A program made the position numbers and the translations under genes. A stretch of DNA of 64,000 bases. It comes from an uncultured delta proteobacterium. GTDB taxonomy: Bacteria; Desulfobacterota; RBG-13-43-22. Location: assembly GCA_963843145.1 (NCBI GenBank), contig CAWJJC010000003.1, forward strand, positions 64,001 through 128,000, in the 5' to 3' direction. Positions within the stretch are counted from its first letter, which is position 1, and each line of letters opens with the position of its first letter. Shown piece by piece: positions 4,764 through 51,175 of the stretch. The notes beneath the pieces are model-generated. The model was not told the DNA's origin, searched no databases, and worked only from the letters and a program-made list of their open reading frames with translations.

Positions 4764-6199
4764 AACGATGGCAGGATCCCAGTTGGGTGGAAGAAATGAA
4801 ATTGGAATTGGATTTTAACCTGATGATGGCCCCGCCGCTGGACCCAGGGTCGGGAATCGTTGACCAAGATATCCAGGACTTGGTCCCCCTATTCCGAGAA
4901 ATTCATCAGGGCCTGTCAAATCAGAGGACCGCGGGCCAGCTTCCTTTTCTGACGATACCCTTTCATCCTTCCCTGGTCCAGGAGATCAAGAAATATGCCC
5001 GCCAGGTTAAGGGCTGGGTTGAAAATTTTGTAGTACTGGGGATAGGCGGGTCGGCTCTAGGGGCCAGGGCCCTGCAAACCGCCTTAAACCACCCCTACCA
5101 CAACCTGCTTTCGCGAACCATGCGCAAAGGATTCCCCCGCCTCTTCGTCCTAGACAATGTGGATCCCGACGGCTTCAAGGCCCTAGTGGATATGATCGAT
5201 GTTCGAAAAACCCTTTTCAACGTGATCAGCAAATCCGGCGGGACGGCGGAAACCATGAGTCAGTTCCTGATCGTCCGCGAGATCCTTAAGAAACGGTTGG
5301 GAAATCGGAAAGAAACGGACCATCTGGCGATTACCACCGACCCGGTCAAGGGAATATTGCGGAAAATCGCCCAGGAGGAACAAATCGCCAGTTTTTCAAT
5401 CCCGCCTTTGCTGGGTGGAAGGTTTTCGGTCCTCTCCGCGGTTGGTTTGTTGCCGGCGGCCATGGTGGGCATCGACATCAGTGAACTTTTGGCTGGGGCC
5501 CGGGAAATGGAACAACGCTGTCGATTCGAAGAGGTCCTGCAAAATCCCGCCTACCTTTGCGCTGCCTTGGCCTACCTGGCTTTTCAAAAGAAGCAAAAAT
5601 CAATCCGGGTCTTTATGCCCTATGTGGATGCCTTGAAAGGCGTCGGGGAATGGTTTGTCCAGCTTTGGGCCGAGAGTCTGGGAAAACGGTTTAACCAGAA
5701 GGGCCAGGAGGTCTGGGTTGGGCAGACCCCCATCGTGGCTTTAGGCGCCACGGACCAGCATTCTCAATTGCAACTTTATATGGAAGGGCCTCCCGACAAA
5801 GTGTTGACCCTGGTGGGGGTTAGAAATTACACCGGGATGCAGCCCATTCCCAAGATGTATCCCGAGGCCGAAGCCCTGGCCTACTTGGGCGGCCACTCTT
5901 TAAACGAGTTGATCCAAGCCGAATTACAAGCAACCCGAATGAGCCTGGCAAAAAATGGCCGTCCCAGTCTATTGATTACCCTCCCGAGGATCAACCCCTT
6001 CACCGTCGGGCAGTTGTTGTTCCTTTTAGAACTCGAAACCTATCTTTGTGGACAACTTCTATCCATCGACCCCCTGGATCAACCCGGAGTGGAACAGGGA
6101 AAGGTGCTGGCCTATGCCTTGTTAGGCCGAAAGGGTTTTGAGAATCAAGTTCAGGGTTGGGACCCTTTTATGATAAGCGAAGCCCAATATAAGCGTTAG
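4760..6199 (+). CDS. pgi: Glucose-6-phosphate isomerase
   Basis: VLGIGGSALG, VISKSGGTAET, GGRFSVLS, QLWAESLGK, GATDQHS, DQPGVEQGK. Confidence 0.95.
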   Translation: MKRWQDPSWVEEMKLELDFNLMMAPPLDPGSGIVDQDIQDLVPLFREIHQGLSNQRTAGQLPFLTIPFHPSLVQEIKKYARQVKGWVENFVVLGIGGSALGARALQTALNHPYHNLLSRTMRKGFPRLFVLDNVDPDGFKALVDMIDVRKTLFNVISKSGGTAETMSQFLIVREILKKRLGNRKETDHLAITTDPVKGILRKIAQEEQIASFSIPPLLGGRFSVLSAVGLLPAAMVGIDISELLAGAREMEQRCRFEEVLQNPAYLCAALAYLAFQKKQKSIRVFMPYVDALKGVGEWFVQLWAESLGKRFNQKGQEVWVGQTPIVALGATDQHSQLQLYMEGPPDKVLTLVGVRNYTGMQPIPKMYPEAEALAYLGGHSLNELIQAELQATRMSLAKNGRPSLLITLPRINPFTVGQLLFLLELETYLCGQLLSIDPLDQPGVEQGKVLAYALLGRKGFENQVQGWDPFMISEAQYKR

Positions 6200-6340
6200 C
6201 CAAAAATTCTTGCAATTTTTGGTTCAGAATAGTCAAGGTACGGTTCAAGAAAGGAATTCCGCATCAAATCCCTTGAGGCAAATCCGGACAGGGTAAAACC
6301 TTTCAAGCTGGTCAAATACTTCTTCCTGAGCAGCTTCCTG

Positions 6341-7690
6341 GTGATGCTGATCTTTGCCTTTTCCCTGGCCTATCTCATCACCCAGCGCTCGGAAAAGACG
6401 TTGCTAAAAAAAACCGAGGACTTCGCTTTACTCCTGGCGGAGAATTTGAACCATCAGGTTTTTTTCAATTTCGTGCTGCCCGTGACTGTCAAGTTCGGGC
6501 AGGTTCAATTGCGGAACACGGACCAATTTAATCTCCTCGATCAGATCATCCGTAATACCCTGTACAGTTTCAAGATCGAAACCGTGAATATCTACGACCC
6601 CCGAAATGTTCTGGCTTATAGCACCGACCGAAGTATGGTGGGGAAAAAAGAGGCGGGCGGCACCGACTATAAGAAAGCCATGAAAGGTAAATACAGTTCT
6701 CGTTTGATCAGCGAAGATGTGTTTATGGAGATCTGGCCCCGGAAGCTCCCACCGACTAAAAAGTTGATCACCACTATTCCTTTCCGGGTGGAAAGCCCGA
6801 CGGCCAAACGGACCGGGCAGATTTTGGGGGTCTTTGAGATCACCCAGGACATCTCCGGGGATTATCAGGATATCCTCTGGGATCAATACCTCCTGGTCCT
6901 GATTTCCGTCGTCCTGATTCTTTTGTTGTTTGTCGTCCTGCTTTTTATTGTCAAACGGGGGGAAACGATCATCGATAAAAGAGCGGAGGAGCGTAAGAAA
7001 TTAGTGGAAAAATTGCACCAATCCGAAAGAATGGCCAGCCTGGGAGCGATGATCGCTTCGGTTTCCCATGAAATTAAAAACCCCTTGGGAATCATCCGCA
7101 GCACCGCCGACCTGCTGGAAAAGAAGATCAGGCAATACGAACCGGAAAACCAATTGGCCTCCGTGATCGGTGAGGAGTCGGTACGTTTAAACCGGATCGT
7201 TACTGAATTCCTGGATTTTGCCCGTCCGCAGGTAGTGCAATATCTGCCGCTAGAAATAGAGGCACTTTTAGAAAAAAATCTGCAATTCCTGGATCCGGAG
7301 ATTCAAAAGCAGGGAGTAACGGTCACCAAGTTCTTTTCCCCCTCGGCCCAGCCCCTTTTCGGGGACCCGGACTTGCTCTACCGGACCTTCCTGAATATCC
7401 TCCTCAACGCGTTGCAAGCCATGCCGGAAGGCGGAATCTTGAGCCTGACTGTCCGCCACCAGCCCCAGGAAGTGGAAGTGGAGATCAGTGATACCGGATC
7501 GGGTTTTTCCCCAGAGGCCCTGGAAAAGGCCTTCGATCCCTTCTTTACTACTAAAGAAAAAGGAAGCGGACTGGGCCTGGCGATCGTTAAAAATACTATC
7601 GAGGCCCATCAGGGCAGGATTAGTCTGGAGAATGGAGTCCACGGAGGTGTAGCGGTCCGTATCGTTTTGCCCAGGGGGGCCACGGCCTGA
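6341..7690 (+). CDS. Membrane sensor histidine kinase (NtrB/ZraS-like); true start probably further upstream
   Basis: Two TM segments, H-box SHEIKNPL, N-box NILLNALQAM, DTGSG, PFFTTKEKGSGLGL. Confidence 0.92.
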   Translation: MMLIFAFSLAYLITQRSEKTLLKKTEDFALLLAENLNHQVFFNFVLPVTVKFGQVQLRNTDQFNLLDQIIRNTLYSFKIETVNIYDPRNVLAYSTDRSMVGKKEAGGTDYKKAMKGKYSSRLISEDVFMEIWPRKLPPTKKLITTIPFRVESPTAKRTGQILGVFEITQDISGDYQDILWDQYLLVLISVVLILLLFVVLLFIVKRGETIIDKRAEERKKLVEKLHQSERMASLGAMIASVSHEIKNPLGIIRSTADLLEKKIRQYEPENQLASVIGEESVRLNRIVTEFLDFARPQVVQYLPLEIEALLEKNLQFLDPEIQKQGVTVTKFFSPSAQPLFGDPDLLYRTFLNILLNALQAMPEGGILSLTVRHQPQEVEVEISDTGSGFSPEALEKAFDPFFTTKEKGSGLGLAIVKNTIEAHQGRISLENGVHGGVAVRIVLPRGATA

Positions 7691-7729
7691 ACGCCCTTTA
7701 ACAAGAACCTATAAATCCGAAATCCGAAA

Positions 7730-9172
7730 ATGGAAACTCTATTAGTTGTCGATGACGAAAAAAACTATCTCCTGGTGTTGAAGGAATTGCTGGCCGACGA
7801 GGGCTATGAGGTGTTGACGGCCCAATCCGGCGCCGACGCCTTGGCCATTCTTAACGAAACGGAATTGGACCTGGTCGTCACCGATATGAAAATGCCAGGA
7901 ATGAGCGGTTTGGAGTTGTTGGAAAAATTGAAACAGAAAGACCCTCAATTGCCGGTGGTCATGATGACCGCCTTCGGTACCGTAGAAAAAGCGGTTGAGG
8001 CCATGAAAAAAGGGGCGTTTGATTATATTTCCAAACCGTTTGATAACGAAAGTCTGAAAAAAACCGTAGCCACGGCTTTGAATATGTGGCGGGTGATCAA
8101 GGAGAACCGTTTTCTTTCCCAGGAATTAAAGGCAAAATTTGGACCCTCCGATTTAATTGGAAACAGTCTGGCCATTCGACAGGTTCGTGAACTTATTCAA
8201 AAAGTCGCTGCAACCAAGGCGACGGTCCTGGTGACCGGTGAGTCCGGCACCGGCAAGGAATTGGTGGCCCGGGCCATTCACGCGCAGAGCCCGCGGAGAG
8301 ACAAGCCCCTGATTTCGGTCAACTGCTCGGCCTTGGCCGAAACCTTGCTAGAGAGTGAATTATTCGGTCATGAACGGGGGTCCTTCACCGGGGCCACGAG
8401 TCAGCGGAAAGGCCGATTCGAAATCGCCGATGGGGGAACCCTGTTCTTGGATGAAGTTGGGGAAATGGCCCCTAGCGTTCAGGTCACCCTGCTGCGGGTT
8501 TTGCAAAACCGGGAATTTGAACGGGTGGGCGGCAACAAAACCATCAAGGTGGATGTACGCTTGATAGCCGCCTCCAACCGGGATTTGAAGGAGGAAATAC
8601 CCAGAGGAACTTTTCGAGAGGACTTATATTATCGATTGAATGTAGTCCACATCGAGGTTCCTCCCTTAAGAGACCGGCGGGACGATTTGCCTCTACTGAT
8701 TCGCTACTTTCTGGAGCGTTTTTCCAAAGAACTGAATAAGGAGACCCCCACCCTGAGTTCCGAGGCGATGACCGTCATCAGGGATTACTCCTGGCCGGGG
8801 AATATCCGGGAATTAGAGAATATGCTGGAGCGAGCGGTTATCCTGGCCTCCAGTTCATTGATCCACGCGGAGGACCTTCCCATTCATCCCAAGGGCCGGA
8901 CGAGCCAGGACTGGTCGGCCGACGAGGTTATTCCCCCGGGTTTAAAGCTGAATGAGGTCCTGGAGATGGTGGAAAAGAAAATGATCCTCAATGCCTTAGC
9001 CAAAACAGGCCATGTCCAGTCCCATGCGGCGGAACTCTTGGGGATTGAGAAAAATTTATTTAAATATAAAATGCGAAAATACGGGTTGGTAATCCTGAGA
9101 TTAAGTAGACGAAGATCAATGGTTGCCTTTGGGCTTAAAAAGGGAGCAGTAAAAAAAATTTTACCAAAATAA
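7730..9172 (+). CDS. Sigma54-dependent response regulator (REC-AAA+-Fis HTH); real stop likely TAA at 9090-9092
   Basis: VVDDE, TDMKMP, GESGTGKE, ESELFGHERGSFTGA, FLDEVGE, WPGNIREL, C-terminal HTH ending KMRKYGL. Confidence 0.93.
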   Translation: METLLVVDDEKNYLLVLKELLADEGYEVLTAQSGADALAILNETELDLVVTDMKMPGMSGLELLEKLKQKDPQLPVVMMTAFGTVEKAVEAMKKGAFDYISKPFDNESLKKTVATALNMWRVIKENRFLSQELKAKFGPSDLIGNSLAIRQVRELIQKVAATKATVLVTGESGTGKELVARAIHAQSPRRDKPLISVNCSALAETLLESELFGHERGSFTGATSQRKGRFEIADGGTLFLDEVGEMAPSVQVTLLRVLQNREFERVGGNKTIKVDVRLIAASNRDLKEEIPRGTFREDLYYRLNVVHIEVPPLRDRRDDLPLLIRYFLERFSKELNKETPTLSSEAMTVIRDYSWPGNIRELENMLERAVILASSSLIHAEDLPIHPKGRTSQDWSADEVIPPGLKLNEVLEMVEKKMILNALAKTGHVQSHAAELLGIEKNLFKYKMRKYGLVILRLSRRRSMVAFGLKKGAVKKILPK

Positions 9173-9241
9173 TTTAATTAATTTAGATGGTTATATTTAT
9201 GACCGCGTAGGAATTTCTCTTGCAGGTAAAAAAAATTTTAC
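9149..9241. promoter_or_regulatory. Two identical palindromic sites GTAAAAAAAATTTTAC (9149-9164 and 9226-9241), putative enhancer (UAS) sites
   Basis: Exact 16-bp direct repeat, each GTAAAA-N4-TTTTAC, 77 bp apart, upstream of a -24/-12 promoter. Confidence 0.7.
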
Positions 9242-9351
9242 TTTTATGGGCATTGAGGCCAAGACGGTTTGGGGGGAGGCAAAAGGGTCTTATTTAATAT
9301 ATTTAATAATATCATATAATTAAATAGATTATGGAATGCCCTCCCCCTCGT

Positions 9352-9367
9352 TGGTATGAGGCTTGCA
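9352..9367 (+). promoter_or_regulatory. Sigma54 (-24/-12) promoter
   Basis: TGGTAT-GAGGC-TTGCA with GG at 9353-54 and GC at 9365-66; IHF-like TATCATATAATTA at 9310-9322. Confidence 0.75.
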
Positions 9368-9376
9368 TTACCAAAA

Positions 9377-9446
9377 GCCAAGTAAACAATCTCTTTTCTC
9401 CTTTCCCCATAAAGCCAACTCCATAAGGGTTGGCTTTATAATTTTT
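9377..9446 (+). ncRNA. Candidate sigma54-dependent small RNA (~70 nt) with CU-rich anti-Shine-Dalgarno tract
   Basis: Lies between the sigma54 promoter and an intrinsic terminator, has no ORF, contains UCUCUUUUCUCCUUUCCCC. Confidence 0.6.
9409..9446 (+). terminator. Rho-independent terminator
   Basis: ataaagccaactc/gggttggctttat hairpin followed by aattttt. Confidence 0.7.
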
Positions 9447-9543
9447 AGCCGATTAAAAAGCCTTTTTGCCTGCCCGGCATCATTTTATTCTGGACAATAA
9501 ATAAAATTATATGTAATTATAGTATGTTATAAGGAGACTGGGA

Positions 9544-10779
9544 ATGCCCGGGCGATTCAAACAGCAAAAATCAAAAGAGGGAAGAAAGAAAGATCCTGCC
9601 TTCCAGGGAAAAGTGGATTATTGCCTTCAACGACTGGAGTCTTATCGGGGGGAAACCGATATCCTCCCGCGGGTTATTGAGGAATTGCTTCCCGGTCTGG
9701 AAGCCGATCCCACACTGGCTGAAGCTTTCCTTGTCCAGGCTACGGCTCGAAAAGATGAGCTTCTGGCGTCATTTCTAAGCCGGTTAAAAGACCGGACGGG
9801 GAGTTCAGCCCTGCGGCGGAGAATCAAAGGCGCGCTGTATCAGTTAAGCCAGCGGGGTCTTGAAATTCCGGAAGAGGCAAAAAACAAAGAGACCGGTCCA
9901 GCTATTCTGAGGCCATCCGAATCCCTGCCGCTGGAGTGCTACGTGTCGGACTTTGACCCCCTGGGTAGCCGAATGCTCACTTTGGTGATCCCCCGGGTCC
10001 CTCAGGGAAGAATTTTGGTCTTTGCCCTGGCAAACTGGGATCAGGGTCTGGAAGACTTGACGGCCTTGGAGGTTTCCAAAAAACAGGTAAAATCCCTTTT
10101 GGAGGAAAGCCAGGAGAGCTCCGGCTACCCGTTATATCCGTCCGACCCGAACCAGGTTGTCTTTCTGCTCCGGGAGGCCTATGACCGATCCCCGGCGTTG
10201 AAAACCGAGGATAAAAAGGTGTACGCGGTATTAATGACTTATCTGGAAACCATGGGTCCTTTCACCCAGCGGCCGATCATCAAGGACTTGATCCCCAGCG
10301 ATGAACAGGAAAATCAAAGCGGCGGGGATTGGGAATCCCTGAAATCGATACCGGAGCTGATGGCCTTTCAACTGCCTTCCGACCTTTTGTCTTCCTGTGC
10401 TCGGCAACTTGAGGAGATTAACAGCAGTCCCCTGGTCCTCGACGCCGGGCAGCAGAAAGAGCGTCTTCAGAGGGTCATCCAGCAGGCGGCCACGGATATT
10501 TTTACCCCGGCGCGGATTGAGAATTTTCATCGGCACCTGGAGGAGATAGCCTATCTTTACTGGCTGAAATCGGCACCCGAACTGTCCTGGGACCTGGTTG
10601 CAGCGGCAGCCAGGCTGGAAGGCGAACCTTTAGACCGGGAAAAGCGGGGAAGCCCCCTTCTGGCCTGGTTGATTGAAAAGGAATTCCAGGAAAATGAAGA
10701 AACAACGAGCGGGTCCGTCGAAGAGTCTGAAACTCGAACCGAAGGGGGGCTCATCCTCCCCCATTGGGTAAAAAAGTAG
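9544..10779 (+). CDS. Hypothetical protein (411 aa)
   Basis: Long ORF with AAGGAG RBS; no recognised motif. Confidence 0.8.
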   Translation: MPGRFKQQKSKEGRKKDPAFQGKVDYCLQRLESYRGETDILPRVIEELLPGLEADPTLAEAFLVQATARKDELLASFLSRLKDRTGSSALRRRIKGALYQLSQRGLEIPEEAKNKETGPAILRPSESLPLECYVSDFDPLGSRMLTLVIPRVPQGRILVFALANWDQGLEDLTALEVSKKQVKSLLEESQESSGYPLYPSDPNQVVFLLREAYDRSPALKTEDKKVYAVLMTYLETMGPFTQRPIIKDLIPSDEQENQSGGDWESLKSIPELMAFQLPSDLLSSCARQLEEINSSPLVLDAGQQKERLQRVIQQAATDIFTPARIENFHRHLEEIAYLYWLKSAPELSWDLVAAAARLEGEPLDREKRGSPLLAWLIEKEFQENEETTSGSVEESETRTEGGLILPHWVKK

Positions 10780-25593: not shown

Positions 25594-25981
25594 CAGCGGT
25601 AAGATTATCACGGGGATAGTCATTTTCGTCATTCTGGTGACTTTTCCGATCTGGTACAACCTGGGTCGGGCCACGCCGCCACCGGATCCTAAAATCGACA
25701 CACCGGTGATTCAGGCCTTGGCGGTAAAGAAGTGTATCGAACCTAAAAACCAGATGAAATACACCCATATGGAGATTCTGGATCAATGGCGGCAGACGGT
25801 TGTGCGGACCGGGGAACGGATTTATACGGCCGGAGACGGGAAGCAGTACGATATGAGCCTCCAAAATACCTGCCTGAAATGCCATTCCAACAAGAGTCAG
25901 TTCTGTGATCAGTGCCACAATTACCTGCAAGTCAAACCCTATTGCTGGGACTGCCACCTTGCGCCAAAGGAGAAAAAGTAA
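25586..25981 (+). CDS. dsrJ: DsrJ triheme cytochrome c
   Basis: N-terminal TM segment; CLKCH, CDQCH, CWDCH. Confidence 0.96.
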   Translation: MHDSGKIITGIVIFVILVTFPIWYNLGRATPPPDPKIDTPVIQALAVKKCIEPKNQMKYTHMEILDQWRQTVVRTGERIYTAGDGKQYDMSLQNTCLKCHSNKSQFCDQCHNYLQVKPYCWDCHLAPKEKK

Positions 25982-38447: not shown

Positions 38448-39048
38448 ATGATTGCCTTTTTAACCGGTCAATTACGATTCAAATCTCCTGAATACAGCAT
38501 CATCGATGTACAGGGCGTCGGCTATCAGGTGGTTTTACCGCTCTCCTCCTTTTATGAATTGCCTCCTTTGAAAGAAGAGATTCAGTTGCACATCCATACC
38601 CACGTTCGGGAGGATGCGCTCAGCCTGTTCGGATTTTTGACCCTTTTGGAAAAGAAGCTTTTTTTATTGCTTCTGGAGGTGACCGGTATCGGCGCCAAGC
38701 TAGCCTTGAATATCCTCTCCGGCATTTCGGCGCCGGAGCTTTATCAGGCTTTAGTGACGGCCGACAGCCAACGGGTCCAGCGCGTGCCGGGAGTGGGAAA
38801 AAAGACGTCCGAACGCATCATCCTGGAACTAAAGGACCGGGTAAAAAAGATTGAAATTATAGCCCCGCCGCCGCCCGAGAGGGGAACCTGGGACCGGACT
38901 TGGGAAGATGCCCTTTCGGCCCTGCTCAACCTGGGCTATGGTCGTCCTTTGGCCGAAAAGGCCCTGGAATCCATCCGCCGACGAATCGGACTCCGGCGTA
39001 ACCCTGGAAGAACTGCTGCGTCGAAGTTTACGGTCTTTATCGCAATGA
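38448..39048 (+). CDS. ruvA: RuvA with a +1 frameshift near 38975-38979 (199 aa when corrected)
   Basis: [44 protein letters not shown]; normal C-terminus [15 protein letters not shown] lies in the shifted frame. Confidence 0.92.
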
Positions 39049-40100
39049 CGACTCCTCGCCTTCTGGATCTCGATAATCTGGAAGGGGAAGGGCAACTCGA
39101 AGTCGGGTTGCGGCCCCGGAGCCTGGATGAGTTTGTCGGGCAGGGCAAGGTGAAAGAAAATCTGAGGATTTTCATCGAAGCCGCCAAGGCCCGCTCTGAA
39201 GCGCTGGATCACGTTTTGGTCCACGGTTTTCCGGGATTGGGCAAGACCACCTTGGCCTATATCATTTCCCAGGAATTGCAGGTCAACCTGAAGACCACCT
39301 CCGGTCCGGTTATCGAGCGGCCGGGCGACCTGGCGGCGCTACTGACCAATCTACAACCTAAGGAAGTCTTATTTATCGACGAAATCCATCGGCTTAACCA
39401 TGTGGTCGAGGAGATTTTGTACCCGGCCATGGAAGATTTTCAGTTGGACCTCCTGATCGGGCAAGGGCCGAGCGCCCGATCCGTCAAGCTGGATCTGCCC
39501 AAGTTCACCCTGGTGGGGGCCACCACCAGGGCCGGGCTGTTGACCCCGCCCTTGCGCGATCGTTTTGGAGTCATCCTCCGCGTGGATTTTTATTCGCCGG
39601 AGGAATTACAGACTATTCTGACCCGCTCGGCGGCCATTATGAAGATCGCCGCGGAAGAGGAGGGGCTGTTGGAGATCGCCCGACGCTCCCGGGGTACGCC
39701 GCGGGTGGCGAATCGTTTGCTGCGGCGGGTTCGGGATTACGCCCAGGTCAGGGCGGAGGGCTGCATCTCGCTGCCCGTGGCCCGGGAGGCCTTGCAGATG
39801 CTGGAAGTGGATCGTTTGGGTCTGGACCGGATGGATCGGAAGATTCTGTTGACCATCATGGAGAAATTCAGCGGCGGTCCGGTGGGGGTGGATGCTCTTT
39901 CCGTGGGCTTGTCTGAAGAAAGGGATACCCTGGAGGATGTCTACGAACCCTTCCTTATTCAACTGGGTTTTTTAAACCGGACCCCCAGGGGTCGGATGGC
40001 CACCCCTTTGGCCTATAGACATTTTGGAAAAAAAGCGCCCGTGGAACTCCAGGGACTATTATTTGAGTCCGAGGAGGAAGAGCGTTCTTCGGCGTTTTAA
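39045..40100 (+). CDS. ruvB: Holliday junction helicase RuvB
   Basis: [48 protein letters not shown]; ATGA overlap with the ruvA stop. Confidence 0.96.
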
Positions 40101-44564: not shown

Positions 44565-47301
44565 TTAAAATTTGAACAATTTTTCAATGAGCTGGGACTT
44601 CATCAAATCCCCTTCAATCTTCAACTTGCCGCCGGTGAAAGCCTGCATGGCCGGGAGCTTGCCGGACATCAGGTTCAGGAAGTCGCCGTCGGCCATCTTG
44701 ATGGTGGTCGTGGGTTTCTCAGAGAGCCCACGGCTGACCTGGCAGGTGTTGTCTTTGATGGCGGCCACCCAATCCCCGCCGCCCGGACCGGAGATCCGGA
44801 ACTGAAAGACCACGTCCACCCCGGCGGCCTTTTCGACCTGAAAAGCCTGGGGGAGGCCGTCGAAGACCGACTGGACGGTCGGCCCTTCAGGCGCCGCGGT
44901 CGGGGCCTCCGGCTGGGAACCTCCGCCCATAAGCATGTCGCCGAAGGCCAGCGTGGTGTTATAGAATTCCTTGGCCCCCTCCAGGGAGTGGATGGCCTTC
45001 CAGTTTTTGTCAATATCCTCGATCGTCGGCAGGGATCGTCCCTCGCCGATCAGGATTCCCGGGCCGGTAACGACGGCGGCCTGGTTGAAATAACCCAAGC
45101 CGGCGTTGAAGACCCGGCCGGTCTCCCGGCACTGTTCGGAAGACAGGTAGAGAACCAGGGGGGCGACGAATTCGGGTTTAAGCCTTTCGAAGAGATCGGG
45201 GGGCAGGATGTCTTCCGTCAACCGGGTGGCGGCCACCGGGGCCACGGTGTTGACCCTGATGTTGTATTTTTCCCCTTCCAGCTTCAGGGTGTTCATCATC
45301 CCCAGCAGGGCCAGCTTGGCCGCCGAGTAATTGGACTTGGCCGAAGTTGCCGAACAGACCGGCAGCGGAGGTGGTGAGGATGATCCGCCCGTATTTCTGC
45401 TCCCGCATTTGCCGGAAGGCCGGCCGGGTGACGTAATAAGCCCCATCCAAATGGACGGAGAGGACCTGATTCCAGTCCTCAGGACCCATTTTAAGCAGGG
45501 TCTTATCCCGCAGGATCCCGGCATTGTTGATGACGATATCCACCCGGCCGAAGGCCTCGACGGCTTGCCGGATGAGGGCCTCCCCGCCCTCGGGAGTGGA
45601 AACGGAGTCGCAGTTGGCCACGGCCTCCCCCCCGGCCGCCCGGATCTCCTCGACCACCCGGTCGGCCGGGCCGGCGGAACCGGCGCCGGAACCGTCCCGG
45701 GCCCCGCCCAAATCATTGACAACCACCTTGGCCCCCCGGGCAGCCAGCTCCAGGGCGTAGGTCCGACCCAAACCGGCCCCGGCCCCGGTCACGACGGCCA
45801 CCTGACCGTCAAAGCGGATGCCGGCCGGTTTTTCTTCTTTTACCGGTGGCTTAACCGGCAGAGGCACGGCCTTCCAGAAATAACCGGAGAACCCGCGGTC
45901 CTTGTCGGTGTACCTCTTCCGGAAAGAGAGCCGGACCGGCTGGCCGACCCAGACCTCGGCCAGTTCGCAATCGGTAAAATCGGCCATGAATCGTCCCCCG
46001 TCATCGAACTGGATCATGCCGTAGACCGCCGGCGGGTCGAGGGAAACCGTCAGCAGGTCTCCGGTAAAGGTCTTGATAAAGGCTGATTTTTGGGCAAACT
46101 CGTAATCTTCCTGGGTGTAGAATTTACGGCAGTCCGGGTTGACGCAGATATCCATTTTAGGAAACTGAGGGGTGCCGCAAGCCGTGCACCGGCCGCCCAC
46201 CAGCCCGAGGATCATCTGCCGCTTCCGGTAGAGGACGGTCATGGCCGTCTGGGTGGGGGCCTCGGCCCGGATCCCCATCTCGGTCTGAATCAGGTCCCGG
46301 AACTTCAGGAACTTGGGATAATTGTCGACCGTCTTTTTGTGCTTTAAGGACCCTTCAATCCCCTTTCGGGGGGGCAGTTTTTTGATGTTCTCGGTCACCC
46401 GGAAATACAGCGCGTCGCACCCCTGTCCGAAGCCCGCCAGCAGGATCCGCTCTCCGGGCTTGGCCTGTTCCAGGGCCTGGGTGAACAGGACCAGGGGATG
46501 CGCGGCGCCGGTCTCCCCGCAGACCTCGTGGAGGTTGTCCTGGACTTTTTCCGGAGGGGCCCCTAGTTTCTTGGCGATGTTGCGGTGTTCGGCCTTGAAG
46601 AAGCAGGGAAAGACCAGCTTGTCCACCTCGTCCATGGTGATGGACAGCTTTTGAAAAAGACCGTTGACCGCCCTGGGAATGATCTTGGCATACCCTTCGT
46701 CCCGGACCCAACGTTCCTCCCACATATAATCATATTTATTTTGAGCGCCGCGATAATGATCGACAAAATCCAGGGAGAGGGTCTCGGAACCTAAGAATTC
46801 GGCAATCACCCCGGTGCTGCCCACCAGGAGCGAAGCGGCCCCGTCGCCGAACCACATCTCATAAAAATAGGCGGCCTTGGCCTCCCGCTTGTCGGCCGCG
46901 GTTACCAGGATACTTTTTGGGTTCCCTTCCCGGAGGGAATTCAAGGCGGTAAGGAGCGCGCTGGTGCCGGAACGGAGGGAGGCGGTGATATCCTGGGCCT
47001 GGATGTCATCCCGAAGGTTCAGGGCCGTTTTGACAATGCCGGCGTTGAGGCGGTCGCTAAAGGGCAGGGTGGTGGAGCACAGGTAGATCGCCTCCACAGT
47101 CGATTTATCCATTCCCGTCAGACAGTCCTGCGAGGCGGCTACGGCCATGGTCAGGCTGTCTTCATCCCAGTTGCAGAAAGACCGTTCCCCCTGGGCGACC
47201 ATGACGATGGCCGGGGCAAGCCAGCCCATTTCCTGAAAGATGCTCATGCGGTTAAGACGGAGCCGGGGAAGGTAGCCGCCGTAGGATATGATGCCGATCA
47301 T
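44565..47301 (-). CDS. Multidomain protein: HMG-CoA-synthase-like + DUF35 zinc-ribbon/OB-fold + SDR + SCP2; +1 frameshift at 45337-45338 (911 aa when corrected)
   Basis: DEDSLTMA, GDGAASL, CTACG..CVNPDC, FWKAVP, TGAGAGLG, NNAG; GNFGQ continues as SNYSAAK after removing one base; LKIEGDLM SCP2 end. Confidence 0.85.
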
Positions 47302-50474: not shown

Positions 50475-50627
50475 CAGGGGATCACGAACCCGCCACCAAG
50501 GGAAACTGGGCGGCCCGAAATGGGTTGATCAAATTAAATGGTAGCAAAATTACAACGTTCGATAATACCGGAGGCCAGATCCCCTGCTCCGAACCGTAAC
50601 TTGCCGGGTGCCCGATGTTGGCATCGG
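50475..50627 (+). ncRNA. Candidate structured leader RNA, possibly a degenerate GEMM-type riboswitch
   Basis: Nested stems (caggggatc/gatcccctg; aaccc/gggtt; GAAA-containing loops) plus cgataatac...gccgggtgcccga. Confidence 0.3.
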
Positions 50628-50701
50628 TCTTGCAAAATAACCTATCCTAGAAAGGGGTATAGGGTAGATTGACCTTAGAGCAGGCCTTGGAGGCCGTCGG
50701 G

Positions 50702-50773: not shown

Positions 50774-51175
50774 ATGGGAATAAAACGCCATTCAGGTTCA
50801 TCTCCAAAACCGGATGGGTTTACTCTGTTGGAAACGGTGATCGCTTTGGGCCTTTTCACCTTGGTCCTTTTATTTTCCACCAATACCTTGATAACCGTCA
50901 TCAAGACCAATGCCCTCAGCCAAAATCGAACGGGGGCCTTGGCCCTGGCTCAGGGGAAAATGGAGTCTCTGAAGTCGCAACCGGTGTCGCTCCTCAGGGG
51001 GGAAACAGAGCCTCAGGTGACCAATGGAAACCTGCCGGTGCTATACCGTCGAGAAACCTCCATTAGTCCGGGGACACCCATGGGCTGTGTCCTGGTGACC
51101 GTGAAGGTTACTTGGCCTTCGGAAACGGCGTCCAACCCCCACAAGGTAGAATTGGCTACCCTGATAGCGGAGTGA
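50774..51175 (+). CDS. Type IV minor pilin-like protein (PilV-like, prepilin N-methylation motif)
   Basis: DGFTLLETVIAL cleavage motif, ALAQGKMESLK, VTVKVTW. Confidence 0.85.
   Translation: MGIKRHSGSSPKPDGFTLLETVIALGLFTLVLLFSTNTLITVIKTNALSQNRTGALALAQGKMESLKSQPVSLLRGETEPQVTNGNLPVLYRRETSISPGTPMGCVLVTVKVTWPSETASNPHKVELATLIAE

Follow-up and report, generated by a model that had tools for sequence, protein, structure and literature searches.

Described systems related to the locus

Membrane sensor kinases that phosphorylate an adjoining sigma54-dependent activator are well established for this class of proteins, and phosphorylated NtrC-type activators act from upstream sites, together with IHF, at -24/-12 promoters. 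Small RNA (sRNA) genes located next to the sigma54 activator that drives them include those of the CbrAB-CrcZ, GlrKR-GlmY and LuxO-Qrr systems; CrcZ and GlmY function as decoys, and the Qrr RNAs pair with the mRNAs of regulators. MicF, MicC and MicA of enterobacteria are short RNAs composed of an unstructured 5' seed and a terminator, which are under envelope-sensing control, use sigma70 or sigmaE and Hfq, and pair over the Shine-Dalgarno (SD) sequence and start codon of porin mRNAs. Pairing that covers the SD sequence and the AUG blocks the initiation of translation.

In the case of Myxococcus xanthus, the available text on Pxr describes a processed RNA of 108 nt with three stem-loops, whose gene lies between nla19 and an NADH dehydrogenase gene and whose direct targets are given there as not known (PMC5568312, PMC5684412). 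For Desulfovibrio vulgaris, the functions of Dv_sRNA2 and of the DVU0653 ncRNA are given as unknown in the accessible parts of the corresponding reports (PMC3333781, PMC4641369). The same parts present DVU3221 as a kinase and DVU3220 as a GSFTGA activator without a known motif, the most conserved Desulfovibrio regulator and one that also occurs in Desulfobacterales; it was assigned to nitrogen genes from one EMSA, and no sigma54 promoter is listed downstream of it there (PMC3333781, PMC4641369). DVU3222 is described as glucose-6-phosphate isomerase in the text available (PMC10920352).

Organization of the locus

The window, that is, the whole 64-kb stretch of DNA analysed, encodes dsrAB, dsrC and dsrMKJOP, and its host therefore has the genes of a dissimilatory sulfur metaboliser. 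Elsewhere in the window, ruvA and ruvB occupy one 550-aa ORF (38448-40100), reflecting a fusion or a missing stop, and at 45178-47301 and 44565-45722 an HMG-CoA-synthase-like domain forms a fusion with an SDR domain, the remainder of which seems to continue in an overlapping frame.

A membrane sensor histidine kinase (6287..7690, plus strand) comprises a sensor region between two hydrophobic stretches, followed by HisKA and HATPase domains (Pfam), and precedes a sigma54-dependent response regulator on the same strand (7730..9172) with a receiver, a sigma54 AAA+ domain carrying GSFTGA and a Fis-type HTH (HTH_8; Pfam). The sensor region corresponds to no named family in Pfam, NCBIfam or the ESM Atlas, and no function is named among the 626 proteins found with this domain at E<=1e-10 in the 50% library; among the NCBIfam matches listed, none for the kinase or the activator lies above the curated cut-off. 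The first standard start of the kinase is at 6341, and homology already begins about 18 codons upstream of it. No standard kinase start is present where homologs begin (6251-6341), and two related loci, L001 and L002 (near 5950-6001), likewise lack one in frame, so a non-standard start may be used. The activator ORF reaches 9172, about 25 codons past the stop position of its relatives and through the first enhancer site; this extension (9085-9172) is either a one-base indel or genuine.

The 16-mer GTAAAAAAAATTTTAC, of the form GTAAAA-N4-TTTTAC, occurs at 9149-9164 and, identically, at 9226-9241, with no third match in the 64-kb window when one mismatch is allowed. These are the predicted distal (UAS1) and proximal (UAS2) enhancer sites, located 203 and 126 bp upstream of the -24 TGG, respectively, and UAS1 falls within the 3' end of the activator ORF. 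Downstream of them lies an IHF-like site (9310-9322, plus strand; TATCATATAATTA) with one mismatch to the consensus used for scoring, followed by a -24/-12 promoter (9352-9366, plus strand; TGGTATGAGGCTTGC) that matches the strict pattern and has its predicted +1 near 9378, 12 nt beyond the GC. The strict pattern has one other match in the window (50619-50633), which is located upstream of a pilin-like gene at 50774 and is not accompanied by a GTAAAA site. A second IHF-like stretch, between the enhancer sites (9181-9193), is degenerate in the window and a full consensus match in L001 and L002.

The predicted sRNA spans about 69 nt (9378..9446, plus strand, with inferred ends) and consists of an unstructured 5' part containing a U/C-rich seed (9389..9408), antisense to an SD-to-start region, and an intrinsic terminator (9409..9446) made of a 13-bp stem at 9409-9439 and a U-rich tail. 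The hairpin has a minimum free energy of -17.4 kcal/mol (z -4.5; 0 of 200 shuffles equally good), and fold prediction leaves the seed single-stranded, with a mean unpaired probability of 0.95. The preliminary description of this DNA had named two identical palindromes, an IHF-like site between enhancers and promoter, a -24/-12 promoter, and a short unit that exposes a CU-rich seed and ends in a terminator. Each of these elements is found in place, with the sole amendment that the identical 16-mers fall short of perfect palindromes: each is an inverted repeat whose 6-bp arms are separated by a 4-bp spacer.

The RNA also remains as unannotated as it was there: no Rfam family reaches its gathering score at this position, the matches in the window being tRNAs only, and none is matched in seven related loci. 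By E-value, the best Rfam match near the RNA is NrrF, with 19 bits against a threshold of 60 and on the opposite strand. Searches of plasmid and phage nucleotide sequences yielded nothing beyond short chance matches, all of them covering less than 80% of the query. Unlike MicF, MicC and MicA, to which it has no sequence relation (no Rfam match), the window RNA appears to be driven from sigma54 enhancers, and it differs from CrcZ, GlmY and Qrr in having no sequence similarity to them.

The locus does share the layout of Pxr and Dv_sRNA2, in that a kinase and a sigma54 regulator lie directly upstream of conserved UAS, an IHF site, a -24/-12 promoter and a non-coding unit with a terminator. As in PxrK/PxrR-Pxr, a kinase and an NtrC-like regulator directly precede an sRNA gene that is equipped with an enhancer region and a sigma54 promoter of its own, and tandem paralogs occur in some genomes; unlike Pxr, as it appears in the available text, the window RNA is about 69 nt long, with one hairpin, an anti-SD seed, no Rfam match and other neighbours. 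The pairs DVU0680/DVU0679-Dv_sRNA2 and DVU0653-ncRNA of D. vulgaris are similar in combining, in a sulfate reducer, a sigma54 response regulator with a non-coding RNA output just downstream (PMC3333781, PMC4641369). Identity with DVU0679/Dv_sRNA2 was considered and rejected: the motif given for DVU0679 is CGTGCG-N4-CGCACG, as against GTAAAA-N4-TTTTAC here (PMC3333781), and unlike the window activator DVU0679 has GAYTGS and a dissimilar listed DNA-binding domain (PMC3333781, PMC4641369). Because motif, size and fold differ, the RNA is assigned to neither the Pxr nor the Dv_sRNA2 family.

Gene order points to a further possible relative, the set DVU3222(pgi)-DVU3221-DVU3220, whose order is taken from the D. 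vulgaris locus numbers alone: pgi lies directly upstream of the kinase in 37 of the 78 loci with a called upstream gene. The activators agree with DVU3220 in the GSFTGA motif and in length (443-460 aa here, 459 aa for DVU3220), but the DNA-binding domain listed for DVU3220, compared by eye, is dissimilar to that of the window activator (PMC4641369). Among the 36 domains listed in that source, the closest to the window's is that of DVU3305, with about 21 of 42 residues shared by eye (PMC4641369).

Conservation of the cassette in related loci

Relatives were gathered with an alignment of the kinase sensor region, and the best 80 of 250 genome loci were analysed. A full-length activator follows the kinase in 50 of these; L021 and L061 end too soon, which leaves 48 evaluable loci. 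A cassette of promoter, seed and terminator lies on the strand of the activator, 190-600 nt downstream of it, in 37 of the 48, identified by sequence pattern in 34 cases and by inspection and a covariance model in L025, L029 and L030, the last with a damaged -24/-12 element. Conservation of promoter, seed and terminator in relatives, on which the preliminary description had let its reading depend, is thus found. The generic promoter-terminator scan did not detect the copies with the type-3 seed defined below.

The cassette is absent from 11 evaluable loci: L068, L070, L072 and L080, which have another C-terminal domain, and L010, L012, L013, L038, L063, L076 and L078. Three of these (L010, L012 and L013) are near relatives with the recognition helix of the window and yet lack a cassette, which may mean that the activator acts on other targets or that the RNA gene has moved. 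In the remaining 30 of the 80 loci, where the activator is incomplete or absent (contig end, truncation or absence), no cassette copy was found. The longer, different C-terminal domain of L068, L070, L072 and L080 is a trait of Syntrophobacteraceae-like activators, and none of the four has a cassette downstream. Kinases without an adjoining activator, despite continuing sequence, occur in L011, L016, L018, L019, L057, L058, L065-L067, L069, L075 and L077.

Conservation is unevenly distributed along the cassette. Across ten near relatives, identity to the window is highest in the seed (9389-9406), at 99%, followed by the enhancer sites with 76-81% and the stem with 71%, and drops to 21-33% in the spacers; the terminator hairpin is retained although its sequence changes. 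In the 19 Desulfobacterales-like sequences with a type-2 seed, 99.6% of the cells in the stem are paired and 10 two-sided changes occur, a count made on type 2 alone since the hairpin is out of register in the type-1 alignment. An IHF-like match with at most one mismatch is present in the zone in 26 of 37 sequences, compared with a mean of 7.0 and a maximum of 14 in shuffles. UAS2 is located at -111 to -114 or at -124 in relatives, spacings about one helical turn apart.

The gene that follows the RNA is variable: 33 sequences have next ORFs from 18 different families, and in 15 of these sequences the ORF is convergent (heuristic ORF calls). This difference in both family and direction indicates that the RNA stands alone. 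It also makes it highly improbable that the sigma54 promoter serves the downstream gene and that the hairpin is an attenuator in its 5' leader, an arrangement that would suit the nine sequences, the window included, in which a 411-aa family comes next on the same strand. In the window, that next gene has its own, partly conserved sigma70-like site (9491-9520), no antiterminator fold competes with the hairpin, and in L035, L043 and L079 tandem promoter-RNA-terminator units are present. The 411-aa protein itself (9544-10779) has no Pfam or NCBIfam match and adjoins the RNA in eight relatives too. The second unit in L035 (9453) and L043 (9467) encodes a longer sRNA of about 120 nt, with its own -24/-12 element, after the first.

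Link between activator and enhancer sites

Across clades, the enhancer sequence tracks the recognition helix of the activator. In a tree of the receiver and AAA+ domains, L001 and L002 together are sister to the window (support 98/90), and their activators are 95-97% identical to the window's over these domains and 50% identical in the recognition helix. Both of their enhancer sites read GTTCAA-N4-T(T/C)GAAC, at -202 and -124, positions as in the window, while the outgroups L003 and L004 retain the helix type and site of the window. The recognition helix and both sites have therefore changed jointly, which ties the activator to these sites; as a single event among kin that share traits, the switch is suggestive rather than statistical. 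Between activators that are 95% identical, it provides a natural example of a specificity swap. In L079, the activator (7417-9045) carries a tandem pair of HTH domains that differ in their recognition helices, and sRNA copies are located at 9425 and 9892, each with its own promoter.

The preliminary description had proposed that the adjacent activator drives a stand-alone, sigma54-dependent anti-SD sRNA. The cassette in 37 of 48 loci, the variable downstream gene and the joint change of helix and sites all strongly favour this proposal, and we infer from the sequences that the adjoining activator likely drives the sRNA gene.

Seed types and candidate targets

Three seed types occur among the copies. 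Type 1, to which the window seed belongs, shows the core CUCUUU(W)UCUCCU without variation in all 17 copies and predicts a target start region of AGGAGA(W)AAAGAG. In type 2, the antisense of the seed reads as an SD sequence, 7 nt and ATG-AA in 19 of 19 copies, without a conserved ORF, and predicts the target start region CAGGAGGAAAGCNNATGAAGAA; the RNA predicted for this type is about 80 nt long. The type-3 seed, present in two copies, is antisense to an MKKLLG start. Common descent of the three types is argued from position and promoter rather than from the covariance score: the cross-type score of the model for the window is E=0.041, and the porin's own plain terminator (see below) also scores, at 27 bits, so that cross-type matches speak only weakly for a shared origin.

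A start region on the opposite strand could also belong to a small peptide gene encoded there, for which the element would be a cis-antisense RNA or antitoxin, as in type I toxin-antitoxin pairs. The minus-strand SD and ATG are indeed well spaced in all 19 type-2 copies and in L035 and L043, but the ORFs that follow range from 3 to 48 codons, shift frame and share nothing beyond their initial three to five residues; 7 of the 37 copies have no start, the window has only TTG, and a conserved small hydrophobic ORF antisense to the RNA was not found. We consider such a function most improbable. Scarcely more credible is a decoy that sequesters a protein in the manner of CsrB or CrcZ instead of base pairing. 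The gene order of CrcZ behind CbrAB is identical, but the window RNA contains neither GGA nor a repeated A-rich motif, and what is conserved in it is one U/C tract, antisense to a start region.

For a trans-acting, base-pairing RNA, the reading of the seed antisense as SD plus start led to the prediction of a secreted-protein target, written down before the porin was found. In L035, L039, L041 and L043, the kinase is flanked by a divergent gene for a 426-aa protein, which begins with a signal-peptide-like segment, ends in Phe and has a weak Porin_4 match below the curated cut-off. Its structural model contains 16 strands after the signal-peptide-like helix (pLDDT 74) and matches OprP, OmpT, Omp32 and OmpF. 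In L043, the porin start pairs with the seed of its own lineage at 19 of 20 positions across the SD and AUG, with -24.0 kcal/mol and rank 1 of 1942 candidate starts, a background in which many are not real starts; with the window seed it forms 17 bp at -22.2 kcal/mol and ranks 5 of 1942. The L035 allele ranks 8 for the seed of L035. Apart from the porin, no top-ranked match in the locus of the seed itself spans SD and AUG; the porin link comes from one lineage of four closely related genome bins. This porin fits type-2 seeds poorly (ranks 103-566) and has ranks 43, 30 and 138 for the seeds of L071, L074 and L079, respectively; no homolog is present within the 64-kb window. A G-run in the porin leader is a further possible pairing partner for the C-run of the first RNA in L035 and L043. 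In an initial scan of the start regions in the loci, spurious starts prevailed and the porin went unnoticed. L042 and L010 contain a complement of the seed with one mismatch, and L009 a similar stretch; this was set aside as a divergent promoter region.

The preliminary description had instead pointed to complements of an 11-mer of the seed in the start regions of dsrO and fmdB. The matches exist at 25966 and 36800, and the dsrO site also encodes the last codons of dsrJ; as targets, however, the two genes are poorly supported, since they reach only about -13 kcal/mol and ranks 326 (dsrO) and 317 (fmdB) of 1942, and leave the invariant 5' CUC unpaired. When the 66 window starts were ranked by a loose RNA-duplex criterion, no clear target emerged (dsrO 17th, fmdB 38th). 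Two or more 11-nt matches among these 66 starts arose in 4 of 400 shuffles, under a null in which the SD core is preserved and A-runs are left out of account; as the observed matches are somewhat above this null, secondary targeting of dsrO and fmdB is possible. Judged by predicted pairing, the porin mRNA fits the seed much better than either.

The RNA might nevertheless be a true trans-acting anti-SD sRNA whose main targets are not porins, and instead are other secreted proteins, such as binding proteins and lipoproteins, or a broad set of mRNAs, perhaps with dsrO and fmdB among them. From the type-2 and type-3 seeds no more than an MKK-like start can be predicted, a feature of many exported proteins, an anti-SD seed pairs weakly with many starts, and the rarity of paired 11-nt matches in shuffles is in keeping with such targets. 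Against them, the seed is near-invariant 5' of the SD complement, which points to one long specific duplex; it is this part that dsrO and fmdB leave unpaired at their low ranks, and the porin is the sole top-ranked own-locus match over SD and AUG. We therefore regard non-porin targets as unlikely, though as an alternative to be taken seriously.

Proposed mechanism and significance

In the proposed mechanism, the membrane kinase would, on its signal, phosphorylate the adjoining sigma54 activator. Very probably, the activator would then bind the two GTAAAA-N4-TTTTAC sites, IHF would bend the DNA, and sigma54 polymerase would make the RNA of about 69 nt that ends at its own terminator. It is also probable, with somewhat less confidence, that the single-stranded seed would pair in trans with a specific mRNA, across its SD and start codon, and block its translation. 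With moderate confidence, we take the main target to be the mRNA of an outer-membrane porin, in which case the system would lower porin synthesis in the way of the MicF/MicC-type RNAs of enterobacteria. Taken as a whole, a sigma54-driven, MicF-like anti-porin sRNA family laid out like Pxr and Dv_sRNA2 is, on balance, the reading we favour. A broader and doubtful extension would make this a lineage-wide, pgi-linked sigma54 system of Desulfobacterota, corresponding to DVU3221/DVU3220, whose ancestral output was an anti-porin sRNA with a seed rewritten in each clade and with helix and sites switching together. If this pgi-linked anti-porin reading were true, the system would be a sigma54 counterpart of EnvZ/OmpR-MicF, and the nitrogen-regulator label of DVU3221/DVU3220 would come into question.

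The RNA represents a conserved, apparently undescribed sRNA family. Both the layout and the mechanism have precedents in other bacteria, so that the surprise is limited; in the full-text literature searched, which covers few subscription papers, control of a porin mRNA by a blocking sigma54 sRNA was not described for sulfate reducers or their relatives. A role is known for very few of the sRNAs found in sulfate reducers, and the available text of a 2019 preprint calls DseA the first such sRNA in Desulfovibrio (10.1101/803072). Since a predicted regulator, its sites, a promoter, a seed and a candidate target are all given, each step is directly testable. If true, the proposed mechanism would mean post-transcriptional control of outer-membrane permeability in these anaerobes, and would provide an output for a widespread, so far unassigned two-component system.
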